In this document: one piece after another, positions 1,039-46,072 of the stretch
How the letters are laid out: the number at the start of each line of letters is the position of its first letter
Position numbering within the stretch: position 1 is the stretch's first letter
Assembly (NCBI GenBank): GCA_003518365.1
Contig: DOYU01000019.1
Coordinates: 40,224-104,223, forward strand
DNA length: 64,000 nucleotides
Source of the DNA: Candidatus Magasanikiibacteriota bacterium
Lineage (GTDB): Bacteria > Patescibacteriota > Patescibacteriia > Magasanikbacterales > UBA922
Direction: 5' to 3'
The notes under the pieces: generated by a model
Database searches by the model: none
The model's input: the letters and a program-made list of their open reading frames with translations, nothing else
What the model was told of the DNA's origin: nothing
Program-made: the position numbers and the translations under genes

Positions 1039-1665
1039 ATGACTAAATATAAGATAGAAACAGATTTTATTTTTCAAAAGACTAAGAAAAAACTTTTTTC
1101 AAAAAAGAACCATTTTATTACTATTAAAAATAATCTTAAACAGAATGAATCCTATACAATAGGTATCAGAATAAAAAATTCAGGAAACAACACTTTACCT
1201 CAGGCTACAATCAAAAATTTAAAGATCCGACATTTAAGCATTGATTTATCACATCAAGAATTTGAGGATTATGATATGTGCATTAATAACCTAATTCCTG
1301 GAAAAACCGAAATTATTTGGTATCCGATGAAATTTGTCACTCTCATGAATGGTTTAATTTGGCTTAACGCGAAAATTGAACCAAAAAACATTTCCGAAGA
1401 GCAAATAACTACTTTCCAAATTGATTCTATAGGACAAGCAAAAAAATATGAAAATAATGAAATAGGGAGTGAACTTTACGTTATCTCTGAAGTAGAAAAA
1501 AAACAAACAATAACTAATTCTTTACTTTTACTACTAACAATAGTTACAACGATTCAGGCCGTATTTGGTTTCAAAAAAGTAATTTCATGGTTTTTTAGCT
1601 TAATACTCTTTTCCCTCGAAAAATTTTTATTGGCAATTCAACTTATTGCTAACTTAATAAAATGA
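1039..1665 (+). CDS. Hypothetical Asn/Lys-rich protein with C-terminal transmembrane segment
   Basis: 208-aa ORF with very low GC (about 30%). The C-terminal hydrophobic stretch is LLLLLTIVTTIQAVFGF...LILFSL. Its stop overlaps the mpl start (ATGA). Confidence 0.4.
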   Translation: MTKYKIETDFIFQKTKKKLFSKKNHFITIKNNLKQNESYTIGIRIKNSGNNTLPQATIKNLKIRHLSIDLSHQEFEDYDMCINNLIPGKTEIIWYPMKFVTLMNGLIWLNAKIEPKNISEEQITTFQIDSIGQAKKYENNEIGSELYVISEVEKKQTITNSLLLLLTIVTTIQAVFGFKKVISWFFSLILFSLEKFLLAIQLIANLIK

Positions 1666-3035
1666 AACACATCCACTTCATCGGCATCTGCGGCGTCGCC
1701 ATGTCAGCACTCGCTATCGCCTATAACAAACGCGGTTATAAAGTAACTGGATCTGACAAAGGCTTTTATCCACCTGTTTCTACAAATTTGCAAGAAGCTG
1801 GTATTGAGTTTTACCCAGGTTGGCATGTGGAAAAGATGACTGCTAAGGGTGATCCAGATGTTGTGATTGTCGGAAATGTCGCAGGATCGGAAAATCCAGA
1901 ATGGCAATACGTGCAAGAACACCAGATAGAATACCTCTCATATCCAGAAGCCATTGCAAAAGATTTTGTCCAAAAAAATTCTATTGTCTGCGCAGGCACC
2001 TACGGAAAATCCACAAGTGCTTCTATTCTGTCGTGGGTCCTCCTCGAAGCTGGCTTTGACCCAAGCTATATGTTTGGTGGCATCAGTCTCAATGATATTC
2101 CAGCAGCAACAATTGGCGACAGCGACTACTCTGTCCTCGAAGGCGATGAATACAAAAGTGCAAGATGGGACAACGGCGCAAAATTCTTCCATTACTCCCC
2201 TACTCATCTGCTTTTGACTTCTGTTGTTTGGGACCATGCAGATGTGTATCCGACAGAAAAAAGTTATGAAAACGCGTTTGAAAAACTCGTGAAAGGACTT
2301 CCAGAAAATGGACGACTTGTGGTTTCAGAAAAAGTACCCGAACAAATTGCCAAATTGCCAAATTGCCAAATTGTTACTTATGGAAAGGGCGAAAACAATG
2401 ATTATCGCTACGACGATGTAAAAACGACAAAAGAAGGGACATCATTCACCATTTACAACAATTCAAACACCTACAACATTTCAACATCAAGTCTAGGAGA
2501 CTACATGGCCGACAACATGACAGGATGTTTTGTCATGGCTCACCAACTTGGGATGAAACCAGAAAACATCATCAAACATCTGTCAACATATAAAAATATC
2601 AAGCGCCGACTCGAAAAAAGATTTGATGGTGATATCACTGTCTTTGACGACATTGCACACTCCCCTACCAAAGCAGAAAAAGTATTGGAAAGTATCCGAA
2701 AGTTATATGATGGAAAAATCTTCGTCGTCTTCGAGCCAAACACCGGCAATAGAAAACCAGCATCACTGCCCGGATACGACAATGCCTTTGTCAGCGCAGA
2801 TGAAGTCATCATCCCTCGCCTCTCACGTGTGAAAGTAGATGAAGAAGATCCAGACAAACCAATCTACGGCAAAGAACTTGCAAACGCGATTGCAAAAACG
2901 CACAGCAACGTTCACTTCATGCCAAACGATGATGAACTCGTCGAGTATCTGCTACAAGAAACAAAAAAAGGCGATGTTGTCGCCTTTCTCGGAAGTCATG
3001 GATTTCGTGGGATGATTTCGCAGCTGGTAAGCTAA
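1662..3035 (+). CDS. mpl: UDP-N-acetylmuramate:L-alanyl-gamma-D-glutamyl-meso-diaminopimelate ligase (murein peptide ligase Mpl)
   Basis: Mur ligase family. N-terminus HIHFIGICGVAMSALAIAY...GYKVTGSDKGFYPPVSTNLQEAGIE matches the Mpl signature (GSDANVYPPMSTLLEKQGIE), and EGDEYKSARWDNGAKFFHY..DHADVY matches the Mpl EADEYD...FDHADIF block. MurC is not excluded. Contains the in-frame octamer repeat (AAATTGCC)x3.75 at about 2344-2373. Confidence 0.75.
   Translation: MKHIHFIGICGVAMSALAIAYNKRGYKVTGSDKGFYPPVSTNLQEAGIEFYPGWHVEKMTAKGDPDVVIVGNVAGSENPEWQYVQEHQIEYLSYPEAIAKDFVQKNSIVCAGTYGKSTSASILSWVLLEAGFDPSYMFGGISLNDIPAATIGDSDYSVLEGDEYKSARWDNGAKFFHYSPTHLLLTSVVWDHADVYPTEKSYENAFEKLVKGLPENGRLVVSEKVPEQIAKLPNCQIVTYGKGENNDYRYDDVKTTKEGTSFTIYNNSNTYNISTSSLGDYMADNMTGCFVMAHQLGMKPENIIKHLSTYKNIKRRLEKRFDGDITVFDDIAHSPTKAEKVLESIRKLYDGKIFVVFEPNTGNRKPASLPGYDNAFVSADEVIIPRLSRVKVDEEDPDKPIYGKELANAIAKTHSNVHFMPNDDELVEYLLQETKKGDVVAFLGSHGFRGMISQLVS
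2344..2373. repeat. Tandem octamer microsatellite (AAATTGCC)n inside the mpl CDS
   Basis: Read directly: aaattgcc aaattgcc aaattgcc aaattg, encoding QIAKLPNCQIV. A related array occurs in the GT4 gene at 21221-21252. Confidence 0.9.
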
Positions 3036-3084
3036 TAAGCAGTAAGCAGAATAAGCAAATAAGCGATAAGCAAACTTAGACCGT

Positions 3085-3195
3085 TCCTTCTCCTTGTAGG
3101 AGAAGGACAGGATGAGGTCTCAACCGTTCATAATTTAGATATGCTTTGCAAGTGCTGAGACCTCTCTCTGTCTCTCTCCTAACAGGAGAGAGAAC
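3085..3195. repeat. Nested polypyrimidine/polypurine palindromes in a convergent-gene terminator zone
   Basis: ttctccttgtaggagaagga; gaggtctca-N33-tgagacctc; tctctctcct-aaca-ggagagaga. Lies between the mpl 3' end and the 3' end of the LysW-like gene. Preceded at 3035-3075 by a TAAGCAG-unit array. Confidence 0.7.
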
Positions 3196-3212
3196 GTACT
3201 AACAAGCTCGTC

Positions 3213-3377
3213 CTATTTCCCCTCCTCTACAATTTCTGCTTCAAGATGCTCTTCCTCCATCTTCGTCACTTCTAGCGTAATGCCACACATCTGACATTCT
3301 ACGACATGTCCAACAGCAAGATCAGGATATGAAGAAAGGTCGACATCGTTTTTGCATTCAATACAGGTAAGCATCAT
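3213..3377 (-). CDS. LysW-like zinc-ribbon small protein (amino-group carrier protein-like), 54 aa, not in the ORF track
   Basis: Reverse-strand translation gives MMLTCIECKNDVDLSSYPDLAVGHVVECQMCGITLEVTKMEEEHLEAEIVEEGK. The CxxC-N17-CxxC pattern and the acidic tail resemble LysW (TCPECGAELRL..GELVVCEDCGAELEV...). The terminal EDWGE is absent. Confidence 0.4.
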   Translation of the reverse strand: MMLTCIECKNDVDLSSYPDLAVGHVVECQMCGITLEVTKMEEEHLEAEIVEEGK

Positions 3378-3400: not shown

Positions 3401-4363
3401 ATGAATGATAGGATAGCAGATGTTCAACGATTTGGCAACATAGCATATTTCCCCATGAAGACGCCACAGCAATCAAATCCAAACCTTGCAAAGGCACTCG
3501 GCACACCGAGCGTATTTTTGAAACGCGAAGACGAGCATCCATACGGATCACACAAAGGACGTTCTATCCCTCACATGATGAAAACGTATGTGAAGCGTGA
3601 TGGAATTCGTGATTTTGTCATTTCAAGCTCTGGCAATGCGGCACTTGCTGCCATCCGCATGGCAGTAAAGCATAATCAGAATAATCCTGAAAAACAAATT
3701 ACATTGCGAGTGTTTGTAGGAAATAATATCGATGAAAAAAAATTGCAAAAACTGCATTTTGAAATCAGTACTCAGACATCTGACATCAGTATTGAACAAG
3801 TTGAAAGACCAAAGCAAGAAGCATTCAAACTTGATAAAGAAGGAACCGCGAAATCGCTCCGACAATCCACCGATGACCTCGCACTTGAAGGATATCACGA
3901 ACTTGCGTATGAACTCATGAAAATTCCAGATCTCAAAGCAGTCTTCATTCCTACTTCTTCTGGAACCACAGCTCAAGCTCTTGCAGAAGTATTTGCAAAA
4001 GAACAACCGTTCACACAAGTTCATATCGTACAAACAACAGCGTGTCACCCACTTGCTGAAGCCCTGGGTGCCACGTCTCTCCCCCTTACCAAGGGGGAGA
4101 ACAAGAGGGGGTCTATCGCCGGAGCGATCGTCGACAACGTCGCTCTTCGCAAATCAGCAGTTGTTGAAAGTATTACAAAAACACATGGCAACGGATGGAT
4201 CGTGACAGACGAAGACATCACCTCCGCACAACAAATAACACAACAAACAACGGGCATTTCTATTTCACCAAATAGTGCACTCGCTGTTGCAGGATTGAAA
4301 AAGGCAATTGATACGGGAACAACGTTTGAAGGTGCTGTTGCATGTGTGATTACAGGTGCATAA
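3401..4363 (+). CDS. PLP-dependent enzyme, fold type II (threonine synthase / Trp-synthase beta superfamily), divergent
   Basis: Lysine-containing GSHKGRS motif and SSGNAALAAIRMAV Gly-rich region, with a C-terminal PLP-fold pattern. A 42-nt palindromic element is inserted in-frame at about 4076-4117. Confidence 0.55.
   Translation: MNDRIADVQRFGNIAYFPMKTPQQSNPNLAKALGTPSVFLKREDEHPYGSHKGRSIPHMMKTYVKRDGIRDFVISSSGNAALAAIRMAVKHNQNNPEKQITLRVFVGNNIDEKKLQKLHFEISTQTSDISIEQVERPKQEAFKLDKEGTAKSLRQSTDDLALEGYHELAYELMKIPDLKAVFIPTSSGTTAQALAEVFAKEQPFTQVHIVQTTACHPLAEALGATSLPLTKGENKRGSIAGAIVDNVALRKSAVVESITKTHGNGWIVTDEDITSAQQITQQTTGISISPNSALAVAGLKKAIDTGTTFEGAVACVITGA
4076..4117. repeat. In-frame palindromic element TCTCCCCCTTACCAAGGGGGAGA...AGAGGGGGTCT inside the PLP-enzyme CDS
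   Basis: Read directly. A near-identical element (tctccccctaccagggggag cta gagggggtct) occurs at 42322-42362 downstream of the GIY-YIG gene. Encodes SLPLTKGENKRGSI. Confidence 0.8.
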
Positions 4364-20197: not shown

Positions 20198-21406
20198 TTA
20201 TGTATTTGTATACAGTGCAAGCAATGTAGGCACGTATTCTTGTGACGCCATTGCTTCCAAAAAGGTACCGGTGTGCTCCCCCATCTCTGCAACTTCCGCA
20301 GCGTGTCCAAGACACCATGCTAATTTTTCTTGCAAATGTTTTTCATCACCGGCTCTAAACGTCATTCCCTGTTTTCCTTCTTCAATAAGCTCTGCAATGC
20401 CTTCAATATGACTCGCCAAGACCGGCACCCCAAACGCAAAACTTTCAAAAATAACGGTTGGGGAATTTTCATAACAGAGCGACGGCACAATGACCATATC
20501 AGCTTCAGCAAACACTCGAGGAAGTTCATCTCTACTCACCCTTCCGTGAATGACAATTCTATTATCTTTTTCTGCTACCTTTTTTACCTCGTCCAACTTC
20601 GATCCATCACCCACAATATGGAGTTCACATTCTTTATCCGTTTGAAAATTTAAAAAAGTATTCAAGAGAAATAATACACCTTTATGCTCCTCCACTTGTC
20701 CTATGTAATAAAACGTGAACGTATGGTGAGTGTTACGTGCTACATGTTTCGTGTTACGTGATCCAAAGGTCATCGGATTTCTCAGCTGCACAAATTCTGA
20801 GTGAGAAAAAAACTTCCACCGTCGATAAAATTCCAATAAAAAATTGGAAGGCGAAATAACCACATCAGGAGAACCCATAAGACGACGCATCATTGCTGCA
20901 TACACTCGTGTTGGCAGTCCATTATAGCGAAAGGAATGTTCTTTTTGTTTCAAAATAATGCCACTGGGCTCTACAAGCTGAACATCATGAACAGTGTGCA
21001 CATGACGAATACCCAGTGAACGAATCACATGCGGGATCAAAAATCCTAATCCCATCAAATTGTGTGTATGTACCACATCAGGACGTTCTTTTTCGAGTAC
21101 ATCTCGAACAAATCGCGCAGAGCCACGGTGAAACATATCGACGACATGCCACAAGAAACGCATGAAGAATGAATGTGTATGACTATCCGTGTAGAAAAAG
21201 AAATTCTTTGGTTCATATTCCCAAATTGCCAAATTGCCAAATTTCCCAATTGCCTTCGATTTTCCAAGCGTAATCAAAAGCACCTCATGCCCAGCATCAA
21301 GCAGACCTGCCACAGTCTTCTCTACTACCTGCTCTGCCCCACCACGAGCGAGCGGTGGATATAAATTGTTTATGATACAGATTTTCATGGATGTACTACT
21401 ATTCAT
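20198..21406 (-). CDS. Glycosyltransferase family 4 (GT-B, RfaG-like)
   Basis: N-terminal MKICIINNLYPPLARGGAEQVV. C-terminal EGFGLPVLEA-like FAFGVPVLASHIEGIAELIEEGKQG. Contains the in-frame octamer repeat at 21221-21252. The likely start is MKICII at about 21384. Confidence 0.85.
   Translation of the reverse strand: MNSSTSMKICIINNLYPPLARGGAEQVVEKTVAGLLDAGHEVLLITLGKSKAIGKFGNLAIWEYEPKNFFFYTDSHTHSFFMRFLWHVVDMFHRGSARFVRDVLEKERPDVVHTHNLMGLGFLIPHVIRSLGIRHVHTVHDVQLVEPSGIILKQKEHSFRYNGLPTRVYAAMMRRLMGSPDVVISPSNFLLEFYRRWKFFSHSEFVQLRNPMTFGSRNTKHVARNTHHTFTFYYIGQVEEHKGVLFLLNTFLNFQTDKECELHIVGDGSKLDEVKKVAEKDNRIVIHGRVSRDELPRVFAEADMVIVPSLCYENSPTVIFESFAFGVPVLASHIEGIAELIEEGKQGMTFRAGDEKHLQEKLAWCLGHAAEVAEMGEHTGTFLEAMASQEYVPTLLALYTNT
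21221..21252. repeat. Tandem octamer array CAAATTGC x2 plus two degenerate copies inside the GT4 CDS
   Basis: Read directly: caaattgc caaattgc caaatttc ccaattgc, encoding (minus strand) KAIGKFGNLAIWEY. Same unit as in mpl. Confidence 0.9.
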
Positions 21407-40983: not shown

Positions 40984-41085
40984 CGCAGACCTCGTCCAAC
41001 GCCCCGCCGACACCACGTCGGCGGGGCTACGGACGAGATGAAAAAAAACTATTGAAACGCCATTTGGGCGATTTTTTTATTGAAA

Positions 41086-41165
41086 AAGTTCTATGGGAAA
41101 CAAAAACAACTCATTGATTTGAGTTGCTTTTGACTGGTCCCGATGGTTCCTCCAGGACCAATCGG
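41086..41165 (-). repeat. Conserved 3' module copy A (hairpin caactca-N-tgagttg, TTTTTGTTT, GGACCAGTCAAAAGC, GC hairpin)
   Basis: aaacaaaaacaactcattgatttgagttgcttttgactggtcccgatgg...ccaatcggg. It is in the same relative position (just 3' of a minus-strand ORF) as copies B, C and D. Confidence 0.7.
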
Positions 41166-42089: not shown

Positions 42090-42347
42090 ATGTACACTCT
42101 CTACATTCTCCGCTGCAAAGACAATTCACTTTACACAGGGATAGCAAAAGATCTCGAGAAACGTCTCGAGATGCATCGCGCTGGGACAGGATCAAAGTAC
42201 GTTCGCGCAAAATCTCCTTTTGCTGTAGTGTATACAGAGAAATGCAAAGATAGATCAAGTGCAACGAAGAGAGAAATGGCAATTAAAAAAATGTCGAAAG
42301 AAAAAAAAGAAACATTGGTTATTTCTCCCCCTACCAGGGGGAGCTAG
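42090..42347 (+). CDS. GIY-YIG nuclease domain protein (UPF0213/YhbQ-like)
   Basis: LYILRCKDNSLYTGIAKDLEKRLEMHRAG...YVRAKSPFAVVYTEKCKDRSSATKREMAIKKMSKEKK is the canonical small GIY-YIG. The C-terminal tail runs into a palindromic element. Confidence 0.85.
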   Translation: MYTLYILRCKDNSLYTGIAKDLEKRLEMHRAGTGSKYVRAKSPFAVVYTEKCKDRSSATKREMAIKKMSKEKKETLVISPPTRGS

Positions 42348-42420
42348 AGGGGGTCTGCTGACAAAAACAACGTTCATAATACTAACGACCCCTCCCAACC
42401 TCCCCTTATAGGGGAGGAGA
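42320..42420. repeat. Two polypyrimidine/polypurine palindromic elements between GIY-YIG and recQ
   Basis: tctccccctaccagggggag cta gagggggtct (homologous to 4076-4117) and cctccccttataggggagg. Confidence 0.8.
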
Positions 42421-42431
42421 TCCTTACTTCC

Positions 42432-44588
42432 ATGACCATCGACCACGCAAGACAATCCCTCAAACATACCTTCGGCTTCGACTCCTTCCGCCCAATGCAA
42501 GAGGAGATTGTTCAGGCTGTCATAGAAAAAAAAGACGTCCTTGTTCTGATGCCCACGGGCGGTGGCAAATCTCTTTGTTATCAATTGCCAGCAACTGTTC
42601 AAGAGGGACTCACCGTCGTCGTCTCCCCTCTTATCGCACTGATGAAAGATCAAGTGGAAGGACTCGTAGAAAATGGTATCAAAGCAGCGTATCTCAATAG
42701 TTCTCTTGAACTCGATGAACATCAAGATATTCTCGCACAGCTCGAACGAGGTGAGATAGACATTCTCTATGTTTCTCCAGAAAAACTGGTCACACAAAGT
42801 TTTCAATATTCGCTAAAAAAATGGAATGTCCAACTTTTTGCCATCGACGAAGCACATTGTATTTCACAATGGGGACACGATTTTCGTCCAGAATATACCA
42901 AACTCCGCGCACTCAAAAATATATTTCCTGATGTTCCTATTATTGCTCTGACAGCAACAGCAGACAAAACAACGAGAAAGGATATTCTGGCGCAATTGCA
43001 ATTGAAAGATCCAAAAATATTTATTTCTTCTTTTGACAGACCAAATCTAGAACTCAACGTATTGCCTGCACACAAACGCATCGAACGCATCATTACCTTT
43101 GTCAAAAAAAGAAAACACGAATCTGGAATTATTTATTGTCTGAGTAGAAATCAAACAGAAAAAGTTGCGAATGCACTGATCCAAGAAGGCATCAATGCAG
43201 GCTACTATCACGCAGGCATGATCTCTCACGAGCGCGCAAAAGCACAGGAAGACTTTATTCACGGAAGAACAAATGTCGTTGTTGCCACGATTGCTTTTGG
43301 TATGGGAATCGATAAAAGCAATGTCCGCTATGTCATTCACCACAACTTGCCAAAAAATCTCGAGGGCTATTATCAAGAAATAGGACGCGCAGGACGAGAT
43401 GGATTGCCAAGTGAAACACTCCTCTTCTACTCGCTCGCAGATGTTGTCTTGCTAAAAAAGTTTGCAACAGAATCTGGACAACCCGCACTCCAACTTGCGA
43501 AATTGGATCGTATGAAACAATTTGCCGATGCATTGATTTGTCGACGACGTATTTTGCTTTCCTATTTTGGAGAAGAAGTAAAAAGTGATTGCAAAAACTG
43601 CGATGTCTGTGAAAATCCTCCAGAACTAGTTGACGGTACAGAGATCGCACAGATCGCACTGTCGGGAATTGCGAGAACAAACCAAGATGTGGCGATCGGT
43701 ATGCTCATAGATATTTTGCGTGGGTCTGGCAAACAGGAAGTATTGAACCAAGGCTACCATACCATAAAAACCTATGGCGCAGGCAGTCATATTTCTCCAG
43801 AAGACTGGCAACAATACCTCTTGCAAATGCTCAATCTCGGTCTTGTTGACGTTGCATACGACCAACACCATGCATTGAAAATTACTACGGCAGGCGCGCG
43901 AGTATTAAAAGGTGAAGACACCGTACAGTTTGTTTCCCTGGCGTATATCGAAGAACGCGCCATCACTGCAAGTAGTAAAGAAAGCAAAACAAATTCTCGA
44001 AGAAAAGAAGCCGAAGAAGTATTGTTTGACATGCTCCGCGATCTCCGTTTTTCTCTCGCAAAAAAAGCAAACATTCCTCCGTATCATGTGTTCACCGATA
44101 AGACGCTCGACGAGATGGCACGTGACATGCCAACAAATGAAGAAAAAATGAAAAAAGTTTCTGGTATTGGTGATAAAAAATTTGCCAGCTATGGCAAACT
44201 CTTTATCGATGAAATTACAAAATTTATTCAAGAAAAAGATAAAGCCGGTGAAAAAATCCAAGGCACAACGCAAGACATCACCTATGCGTATTATCGCCAA
44301 GGTATGCCGGTCGGGATCATTGCAAAAGAACGCGATCTCAAATCGGTCACGATCTACGGGCATCTCGCAGATCTGTATGAAAAAGGATATGATATCAATA
44401 TCCACGATTTCATTGATAAACGGGATCTAAAAAAAATCTGTGAGAATCTCAAAGAAAAAGGCGTCCCACAAAAATTGAAATCGTTGTATGAACGGTTTGA
44501 TGGAACGTTTGATTATGACAAGCTCCGCCTTGCTGTTGCGTATTATCGGAAAGAAAATAGGAAGCAAGGGGTTATTGAGTATAGGTAA
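42432..44588 (+). CDS. recQ: ATP-dependent DNA helicase RecQ with a C-terminal extension
   Basis: FRPMQEEIV, GGGKSLCYQLPA, DEAH (DEAHCISQWGHDFRPEY), RQC zinc cysteines (CKNCDVC) and an HRDC-like region. An extra roughly 110 aa lie C-terminal of the HRDC. Confidence 0.9.
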   Translation: MTIDHARQSLKHTFGFDSFRPMQEEIVQAVIEKKDVLVLMPTGGGKSLCYQLPATVQEGLTVVVSPLIALMKDQVEGLVENGIKAAYLNSSLELDEHQDILAQLERGEIDILYVSPEKLVTQSFQYSLKKWNVQLFAIDEAHCISQWGHDFRPEYTKLRALKNIFPDVPIIALTATADKTTRKDILAQLQLKDPKIFISSFDRPNLELNVLPAHKRIERIITFVKKRKHESGIIYCLSRNQTEKVANALIQEGINAGYYHAGMISHERAKAQEDFIHGRTNVVVATIAFGMGIDKSNVRYVIHHNLPKNLEGYYQEIGRAGRDGLPSETLLFYSLADVVLLKKFATESGQPALQLAKLDRMKQFADALICRRRILLSYFGEEVKSDCKNCDVCENPPELVDGTEIAQIALSGIARTNQDVAIGMLIDILRGSGKQEVLNQGYHTIKTYGAGSHISPEDWQQYLLQMLNLGLVDVAYDQHHALKITTAGARVLKGEDTVQFVSLAYIEERAITASSKESKTNSRRKEAEEVLFDMLRDLRFSLAKKANIPPYHVFTDKTLDEMARDMPTNEEKMKKVSGIGDKKFASYGKLFIDEITKFIQEKDKAGEKIQGTTQDITYAYYRQGMPVGIIAKERDLKSVTIYGHLADLYEKGYDINIHDFIDKRDLKKICENLKEKGVPQKLKSLYERFDGTFDYDKLRLAVAYYRKENRKQGVIEYR

Positions 44589-45227: not shown

Positions 45228-45344
45228 ATATACTAATGCGAGTTAAACAGTTAGCATTAGAATCCCAAAAGAACCTCTTATTAGCTGGCTCCATAGTCCC
45301 GAAGGGCTGTGGAGCCAGCCAAGAGGAAAACGATTTTCCAAACA

Positions 45345-45445
45345 ACATTAGTAAAAACAAAAACAACCCTTTCTAAGAGTTGCTTTTGACTGGTCCGACG
45401 CGCTCGTTCTTCTGATCGACCACGAAGGGCCAGTCAGCGCATGAG
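45345..45445 (-). repeat. Conserved 3' module copy C
   Basis: attagtaaaaacaaaaacaaccctttctaagagttgcttttgactggtcc, plus the GC-rich IR cgacgcgctcg...cgagcgcgtcg. Confidence 0.7.
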
Positions 45446-45893: not shown

Positions 45894-45977
45894 CCTCTTC
45901 ACAGGGTGGGTAAGGCTCCCTGTTTGCGCATAGCTAAGCAAAAAATGTACCTTTTGTCAATAGTATACACTCAAAAA

Positions 45978-46072
45978 AATTAGTAAAAACAAAAACAGCC
46001 TTTTCACAAAGCTGCTTTTGCATTGTCCCCGACGATCGGTGCGACAATACGCACGACGTCGGGGTAGTCCCC
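45978..46072 (-). repeat. Conserved 3' module copy D
   Basis: attagtaaaaacaaaaacagccttttcacaaagctgcttttgcattgtcc, plus the GC hairpin ccccgacg...cgtcgggg. Confidence 0.7.

Follow-up and report, generated by a model that had tools for sequence, protein, structure and literature searches.

The stretch of DNA analyzed here, hereafter the window, comprises 64,000 nucleotides (nt) of contig DOYU01000019.1 (GenBank assembly GCA_003518365.1, positions 40,224 to 104,223 of the forward strand) from a Candidatus Magasanikiibacteriota bacterium. It carries a gene for a fold-type II pyridoxal 5'-phosphate (PLP)-dependent enzyme, and within this gene's open reading frame (ORF), the only long one at that place, lies the subject of this work, a 39-nt element at 4076-4114 on the plus strand, TCTCTCCCCCTTACCAAGGGGGAGAACAAGAGGGGGTCT, whose anatomy is that of a putative intrastrand-triplex unit. 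The host gene and the parts of the coding unit are arranged as follows:

3401..4363, plus strand: host gene, fold-type II PLP-dependent enzyme (PF00291; Pfam E = 1.1e-34)
4078-4087, plus strand: pyrimidine arm, TCTCCCCCTT
4088-4090, plus strand: first loop, ACC
4091-4100, plus strand: purine arm, AAGGGGGAGA
4101-4103, plus strand: second loop, ACA
4104-4112, plus strand: mirror (putative reverse-Hoogsteen) arm, AGAGGGGGT
4113-4114, plus strand: terminal CT

The element is in frame and free of stop codons. It spans 13 codons, which correspond to residues 226-238 of the PLP enzyme (peptide SLPLTKGENKRGS), and the surrounding peptide reads A-T-S-L-P-L-T-K-G-E-N-K-R-G-S-I-A. An earlier, sequence-only reading of this DNA had described a palindromic element in frame inside the PLP-enzyme gene at 4076-4117; the sequence and the ORF reading confirm it, with the boundaries given above.

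The nearest homologues of the enzyme belong to Candidatus Magasanikbacteria and other Patescibacteria, and its AlphaFold2 model resembles threonine synthase and threonine deaminase (Foldseek versus PDB, TM-score ~0.76). The insert is also found in proteins at 98% and 86% identity, whereas it is absent from those at 78-81% identity (P0003-P0005, P0007) and from the great majority; most homologues have 293-296 amino acids, against 320 here. The orthologue comparison proposed in the sequence-only reading therefore speaks for an insertion and not for a universal ancestral loop, since the closest homologues (P0003-P0008) lack the element. At the DNA level, the site reads GCCAC followed by GTCTCTCCCCCTTACCAA and GGGGAGAACAAGAGGGGGTCT in the window, versus GCCAC followed by AGGAGAAGATACAGATAGCTCT in relative L001, that is, a net gain of 18 nt (SLPLTK) with the subsequent 21 nt replaced or strongly diverged. 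Consequently, the claim that 14 residues had been added stands as regards the in-frame gain but not the number: compared to the closest element-free homologues, only six of the 13 codons (SLPLTK) are a net addition and the next four to five are substituted.

Among the 112 homologues in which the corresponding loop was measurable, it has 14 residues in 50 and 13-15 residues in 73, versus 20 residues in the window enzyme. In the AlphaFold2 model (mean predicted local distance difference test score, pLDDT, 87.9), residues 222-250, which separate two helices, are coil, and pLDDT drops below 50 at 230-235. As modelled, then, the coding insert sits in a floppy, disordered loop, and this low-confidence coil is the outcome of the structure prediction that had been suggested together with the orthologue comparison.

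The coding unit is a singleton. Four other G/C-rich units in the window are intergenic or lie at a gene end, and form two doublets, R1 and R2, each made of two inverted units around a 30-40 nt spacer:

3036..3212, no strand: intergenic region holding doublet R1, between the convergent Mur-ligase (1662-3035, plus strand) and LysW-like (3213-3377, minus strand) genes
3085..3118, plus strand: R1 unit 1, TCCTTCTCCT-TGT-AGGAGAAGGA-C-AGGATGAGGT, the mirror arm having T opposite A at two positions
3160..3193, minus strand: R1 unit 2, inverted, TCTCTCTCCT-GTT-AGGAGAGAGA-C-AGAGAGAGGT
42090..42347, plus strand: GIY-YIG gene (PF01541 over residues 1-73 of 85)
42324..42356, plus strand: R2 unit 1, with pyrimidine arm 42325-42332 (CTCCCCCT), loop ACC and purine arm 42336-42343 (AGGGGGAG)
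42344-42356, plus strand: 3' part of R2 unit 1, with second loop CTA at 42344-42346, mirror arm 42347-42354 (GAGGGGGT), then CT
42357..42387, no strand: R2 spacer, GCTGACAAAAACAACGTTCATAATACTAACG...
42388..42417, minus strand: R2 unit 2, inverted, CCTCCCCT-ATA-AGGGGAGG-TTG-GGAGGGGT, 14 nt upstream of the recQ start codon

R2 unit 1 (42324-42356, TCTCCCCCTACCAGGGGGAGCTAGAGGGGGTCT) is a near-copy of the coding element, 38 kb away from it. The sequence-only reading had placed such a copy at 42322-42362 and had listed further pyrimidine/purine hairpins; these were found as well, at 3085-3107, 3171-3193 and 42399-42417, with perfect stems of 8-10 bp. The R2 spacer and the region of doublet R1 have CGTTCATAAT and TACTAAC in common. 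In relative L001 the spacer equivalent to 3036..3212 measures 9 nt. The whole of 3080-3200 folds as one long hairpin (z = -5.9) because the two units are inverted around their spacer. We also considered 3080-3200 and 42318-42425 each as a single structured RNA with a long-range stem, a description that was replaced by two inverted units plus spacer.

All five G/C-rich units of the window follow one order: pyrimidine arm, loop, complementary purine arm, loop and mirror purine segment, ending in TC(T). Their arms measure 8-10 nt, the first loop 3 nt and the second loop 1-3 nt. The third segment mirrors the purine arm and is not complementary to it; the positions of A shift in step between purine and mirror arms from unit to unit, and the imperfect mirrors arise from A to T changes. 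Under Watson-Crick rules only, DNA folding of each window unit yields a hairpin with a free 3' purine tail, which is the third arm. The triplets G*G:C, A*A:T and T*A:T are those of the antiparallel purine-motif triple helix, and by this rule the third arm agrees with the hairpin at 8/8, 8/8, 10/10, 10/10 and 9/10 positions in the five units. Such units exceed the chance expectation for this DNA: the pattern TCTCCCCC-N4-10-GGGGGAG has three matches (two loci) in the window versus 0.00 expected (100 shuffles), and a triplex-unit finder written for this analysis reports six units, whereas 100 dinucleotide-shuffled versions gave 0.2 on average and 3 at most. Five of the six are the G/C-rich units, and the sixth is A/T-rich and of the kind expected by chance.

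The same architecture extends far beyond this lineage. One genome per GTDB species was scanned for TCTCCCCC-N4-9-GGGGGAG-N1-6-GAGGGGGTC, and this 24-base core was found in at least 120 contigs, from Bacteroidota, many Patescibacteria, Cyanobacteria, Planctomycetota, Poribacteria, Binatia, Ignavibacteria, Proteobacteria, Chloroflexi and Clostridia. The additional copies whose search had been proposed at the outset are thus present in the window and in many other genomes. From the listed core-bearing loci of other genomes (hereafter the listed loci), we collected 227 unique pyrimidine/purine hairpin units without the searched core as a set for a covariation test of the mirror arm. A perfect mirror of the purine arm, with A facing A or T, occurs in 30% of these units, versus a mean of 4.6% and a maximum of 9.1% when arms and downstream segments were re-paired randomly (500 permutations). 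Particularly, the third arm has G at 644 of the 667 positions opposite a purine-arm G, and T or A at 214 of the 233 positions opposite a purine-arm A (T 128, A 86, G 9, C 10). The second loop is 3 nt long in 75 of 109 units of this set, usually followed by TC(T).

Across the listed loci, the second loops comprise TTA (38), TTG (11), CTA (10), CGGG (9), CCA (8) and CCG (5), and 42 of 134 units have an inverted partner nearby. Of the same 134 units, 37 lie within a long ORF and 150 nt or more from either of its ends; 19 of these have the sense orientation and encode peptides such as SPPxxGGxRGGL, and 18 have the antisense orientation and encode TPSNSPLxxGE. The share of units inside genes (about 28%) falls well short of the coding density usual in bacteria, which would be expected if most coding insertions were purged. 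Pfam families were assigned to 35 unit-bearing ORFs, and they include AcrB, CysRS, ArgRS, an IleRS-type synthetase, SecA, LigA, TsaD and LptD, together with nonribosomal peptide synthetase modules, a DEAD-box helicase, a major facilitator superfamily transporter, an integrase and glycosyltransferases.

The same loop of the PLP enzyme holds triplex units that differ from the window unit in no fewer than four other lineages:

P0036: CCCCTCCTT-GCG-AAGGAGGGG-TTG-GGGGAGGTT
P0083: CCCTCTCCC-N10-GGGAGAGGG-TCA-GGGTGAGGG-GTC
P0087: CCCCTCCTT-TAG-AAGGAGGGG-(21-nt nested hairpin)-GGGGTGGTC, the nested hairpin lying in the second loop
P0093: CTCCCCCT/AGGGGGAG hairpin from the finder, with third arm GTGGGGGT after a longer nested linker

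The linker of the P0093 unit exceeds the limit of the finder, and its third arm was read by eye from the sequence. Judged from these sequences, the loop has been colonised at least five times independently. The DNA of the ancestral site is purine-rich, and the recurrence is compatible with targeting as well as with mere tolerance.

At L128:211-1212 (P0076), L127:2725-3702 (P0087) and L136:368-1312 (P0093), small repeats of other families are either translated in frame or sit nested in the loops of triplex units, and such repeats are also found downstream of the GIY-YIG gene in L141-L143; they encode EPALSLSKG- and FDSARDRL-like peptides, and tails like SVIARNA (...gcaatgacgaagcaatcc...). Since such repeats lie nested inside them, the loops of triplex units seem to be insertion targets themselves.

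A survey of intrastrand triplex motifs has covered 5246 genomes and plasmids of prokaryotes (Holder et al., 2015; NAR 43:10126; PMC4666352). The published motif, TM_ECO, reads 5'-CCCTCNCCC N3-6 GGGNGAGGG N3 GGGNGAGGG[GTC]-3' and belongs to class II, in which a pyrimidine arm is followed by a purine arm and a reverse-Hoogsteen arm; its arms measure 9 nt and its 3-nt second loop is TTA or CCG. It corresponds to BoxC, first noted in the 1990s (Bachellier et al.) and rediscovered as PIT elements (Hoyne and Maher, 2000), as recounted in the survey. E. coli MG1655 has 23 copies, all described as intergenic and including five inverted doublets, with no transposase or mobility genes nearby and with raised sequence variability between strains in their flanks. 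The isolated single strand adopts a stable triplex in vitro, as seen by circular dichroism and nuclear magnetic resonance. The motif is abundant in Enterobacteria and Cyanobacteria, its origin is unknown according to the authors, and local genomic instability is the only reported effect of such repeats (PMC4666352).

The window units resemble BoxC/PIT/TM_ECO in arm order, arm length, loop lengths and terminal TC. Units elsewhere include both second-loop types known from E. coli (TTA and CCG), and the two groups are likewise multi-copy, occur as singletons and inverted doublets, are found in cyanobacteria and have no associated mobility gene. They also recall H-DNA, as the purine arm, second loop and mirror arm of the coding unit (AGGGGGAGA-ACA-AGAGGGGGT) form the perfect homopurine mirror repeat that H-DNA requires; unlike H-DNA, however, an extra upstream pyrimidine arm would allow the whole triplex to be built from one strand, making supercoiled duplex unnecessary. 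On these grounds, we consider it probable, and hold with good confidence, that the element is a non-coding intrastrand-triplex repeat of 33-39 nt, of the BoxC/PIT/TM kind, carried as translated baggage in the loop of the PLP enzyme. It is a known kind of element with a new behaviour and a new host range. Unlike the E. coli elements, it resides in a member of the Candidate Phyla Radiation (CPR), has one copy translated inside a protein-coding gene and, in several lineages, carries nested insertions in the second loop. Neither in-frame or coding copies of triplex motifs nor follow-up papers on ITxF/TM_ECO were found in the literature searched, the coverage of which is incomplete.

Several points weigh against this assignment. 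The window arms (TCTCCCCCT, CTCCCCCT, CCTCCCCT, TCCTTCTCCT and TCTCTCTCCT) are of a CTCCCCC type and differ from the E. coli consensus CCCTCNCCC; because of this difference, the units were placed in the structural class and not in the TM_ECO sequence family. Outside the window, arms of the TM_ECO consensus are present in some units of the covariation set and in the P0083 unit, whose second loop and GTC end fit it as well, although its first loop has 10 nt instead of 3-6. For E. coli, the elements are said to lie between genes in every case, whereas the copy in the PLP gene is coding. In vivo dimethyl sulfate footprinting in E. coli detected no triplex (PMC4666352), and we infer triplex formation in the window units from the symmetry of their sequence only. 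Identity across phyla need not mean common descent, since the sequence space of C-rich 9-mers is small. Finally, the coding unit does not look like a clean insertion, as ~40 nt stand in place of ~22 nt, and its sequence context suggests that homologous recombination, and not transposition, may have brought it there.

In this regard, the window sequence is about 80% identical to that of L004 across the PLP gene and 92-100% identical over 4037-4250; it is identical to that of L006 up to ~4190 and divergent thereafter. This identity profile points toward a mosaic PLP gene, in which the unit travelled in a recombination patch of ~200 nt and recombination breakpoints fall close to it. Toward its 3' end, the gene of the window departs from that of the 98%-identical relative. 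Purifying selection on the 39 nt, which are 100% conserved between lineages 86% identical in protein, was considered and dropped, because the ~200-nt recombination patch accounts for the identity.

A mechanism along the following lines can be proposed. When the strand becomes single-stranded, the pyrimidine and purine arms would form a Watson-Crick hairpin, and the mirror purine segment, running antiparallel to the purine arm, would fold into the major groove of this hairpin by reverse-Hoogsteen pairing (G*G:C, A*A:T and T*A:T triplets); in vivo, we infer, such a triplex would be transient, arising during replication or repair. The unit, or a recombination patch of ~200 nt containing it, would have landed in the variable, disordered loop of the PLP enzyme, where it is translated as SLPLTKGENKRGS. 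Since pyrimidine/purine runs are nearly free of stop codons and encode a flexible Ser/Pro/Gly-rich peptide, selection would keep only the frame-preserving insertions in such loops. For the PLP enzyme, the insert would most likely be neutral baggage.

Among the alternatives, a REP/REPIN-like element mobilised in trans by a RAYT-type (HUH/Y1) transposase, which would be encoded in single copy and bind the hairpin, with the mirror arm as part of the protein recognition site, comes closest, even though we regard it as unlikely. The known repetitive extragenic palindromic (REP) elements are likewise hairpin units of 20-40 nt, single or in inverted doublets, mostly extragenic and numerous per genome, so that a hairpin of 33-39 nt is compatible with them. 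The combination of singletons and inverted doublets with short spacers (21/134 units tail-to-tail and 21/134 head-to-head in the listed loci) is the layout of REPINs. Moreover, in 131 units no flanking direct repeats of 2-6 nt were found above expectation, and the lack of a target-site duplication is expected for single-strand HUH transposition; beyond position -1 (T in 60%) and position +1 (T in 51%), the flanks of these units are unconserved. However, REP families are specific to a species or clade, co-evolve with their RAYT, have no mirror third arm and are not known across phyla, whereas the 24-base core occurs in about 10 phyla among the matches listed. Furthermore, the third-arm substitutions obey triplex rules (A or T opposite A), as no model of protein recognition predicts, and the lack of mobility genes around the E. 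coli copies (PMC4666352) also speaks against a transposase partner. No transposase or inverted terminal repeat is visible in the 64-kb window or in the short loci from other genomes, in which no systematic transposase scan was made.

An RNA-level role, in which the element would end transcription, stabilise mRNA 3' ends or act as a small RNA and the coding copy would be accidental, appears slightly less likely still. It would suit the position of four of the five window units at gene ends, namely after the GIY-YIG gene and between convergent genes, and the good folding of the doublets as RNA (-53.9 kcal/mol, z = -5.9, and -42.5 kcal/mol, z = -3.2), as well as the GGAGG held by the unit at 42388-42417, 11-14 nt upstream of the recQ ATG. 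Nonetheless, the terminator scan reported no window unit as an intrinsic terminator, and all the hairpins lack a T-run downstream. Rfam gave no match at gathering score in the whole window, and in 42250-42480 only chance-level microRNA-type matches at E <= 10; a tRNA and tmRNA scan found none. In addition, coding copies occur without orientation bias in the listed loci (see above), a point in favor of a property at the level of DNA and not of RNA. Triplexes of the purine motif are not formed by RNA, and PIT elements have neither promoter nor terminator activity in E. coli (PMC4666352 and work cited therein).

With regard to recQ, the purine arm of R2 unit 2 supplies GGGGAGGAG 11-14 nt upstream of its ATG (42432), and as a result the only Shine-Dalgarno-like sequence of this gene lies inside a hairpin arm.

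The sequence-only reading had likened the element to the Rickettsia palindromic elements (RPE) and had noted an association with the GIY-YIG gene, coincidental or not. A MITE (a miniature transposable element with inverted repeats) of RPE type, or a passenger of the neighboring GIY-YIG homing endonuclease, is nevertheless very improbable and by now largely refuted. RPE, reportedly described by Ogata and colleagues in 2000, are selfish palindromic DNA found in frame in conserved protein genes and tolerated at surface positions, and the coding unit shares the in-frame location. By description, however, RPE measure 100-150 bp, belong to one lineage and have no homopurine mirror arm, in contrast to the 37-39 nt of the present element and to its defining third purine segment, because of which it was placed with BoxC/PIT/TM and not with RPE. 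Of the two marks of a MITE, the element has no terminal inverted repeats distinct from the hairpin, and target-site duplications were not found in the 131 units. The analogy with RPE holds in function only.

As for the GIY-YIG gene, which one copy does abut, R2 unit 1 supplies its last eight codons (ISPPTRGS) and its TAG stop (42345-42347, in the second loop). The tail thus corresponds to what the sequence-only reading had seen in this copy, whereas the terminator it had added has no support, there being no T-run. In L137, a metagenomic relative with a 90%-identical GIY-YIG gene, a TAG stop stands directly before a different unit variant (TTCCCCTCCTTACCAAGGAG...); the window lacks this upstream stop, and its ORF therefore extends into the unit as far as the TAG of the second loop. 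Hence, the R2 unit did not insert into the GIY-YIG ORF. Of the other metagenomic relatives, L138 carries between GIY-YIG and recQ a doublet that is degenerate and contains a nested hairpin; the GIY-YIG relatives in L139, L140 and L147 have no unit at all, and L141-L143 have other kinds of small repeat in the same downstream place. The spacer between GIY-YIG and recQ is a landing pad for several repeat families, and the GIY-YIG gene is a bystander. Consistently, none of the 120 element-bearing loci listed encodes a GIY-YIG relative (tblastn with the window GIY-YIG protein), so that, also in view of the unit-free relatives, the association is coincidental.

An ancestral loop, palindromic by chance or by local evolution in situ, is refuted and retains next to no probability: in its favor, the loop is by nature variable and rich in purines, as with GGAGAAGATACAGATAGC in L001, and the ancestral-type sequence is matched by 11 of the 21 bases downstream, but a near-identical 33-nt copy lies 38 kb away against a chance expectation of 0.00, orthologues lack the element, and other lineages have different triplex units in the same loop.

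Returning to an intrastrand-triplex repeat of the BoxC/PIT/TM kind, such elements have been known for about 30 years with no agreed origin, spread mechanism or function, as the authors of the 2015 survey say (PMC4666352). In-frame units in conserved genes, their presence in many phyla, including the genome-reduced CPR, and their recurrence in the same loop offer handles that go beyond the intergenic E. coli copies. Particularly, from filled and empty orthologous coding sites one can precisely read the boundaries of insertions, their target preference and their age, and the coding context acts as a frame filter with a measurable signature. Ser/Pro/Gly-rich loop insertions in enzymes, tRNA synthetases or SecA could pass for lineage-specific features or assembly errors. 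Tentatively, and with a probability that we put well below even, triplex units might constitute a pan-bacterial, protein-free and structure-driven class of selfish DNA that colonises intergenic DNA and, in frame, essential genes, repeatedly at permissive purine-rich loops, and that spreads through universal replication and repair activity instead of a dedicated transposase. If this were true, bacterial proteins would commonly owe loop insertions to these units, in the form of SPPxxGGxxGG and TPSNSPLxxGE peptides, a source that has gone unrecognised.

Other repeats and a small gene were observed around the features described here. Where the window has doublet R1 (3036-3212), relatives have, between the Mur-ligase and LysW genes, a gene for a bAvd / 23S-rRNA-IVP four-helix-bundle protein (PF05635/PF22296), at L004:1490-1861, L005:888-1259 and L134:1-179. 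In L004 this gene is bounded by inverted TAAGCA-type repeats, and it may be a small mobile gene that exploits the R1 spacer. A degenerate tandem run, TAAGCAGTAAGCAGAATAAGCAAATAAGCGATAAGCAAAC, starts at the stop codon of the Mur-ligase gene (window 3032-3075), and L001 and L004 have related TAAGCA runs where this gene ends. A tandem repeat of 8 nt, CAAATTGC, with about three repeats, is present at 2335-2381, inside the Mur-ligase ORF, and at 21206-21260. Finally, an intergenic repeat of ~56 nt (AAAAACAAAAACAAC...TTGCTTTTGACTGGTCC) has three copies in the window, at 41085-41140, 45341-45396 and 45973-46028.

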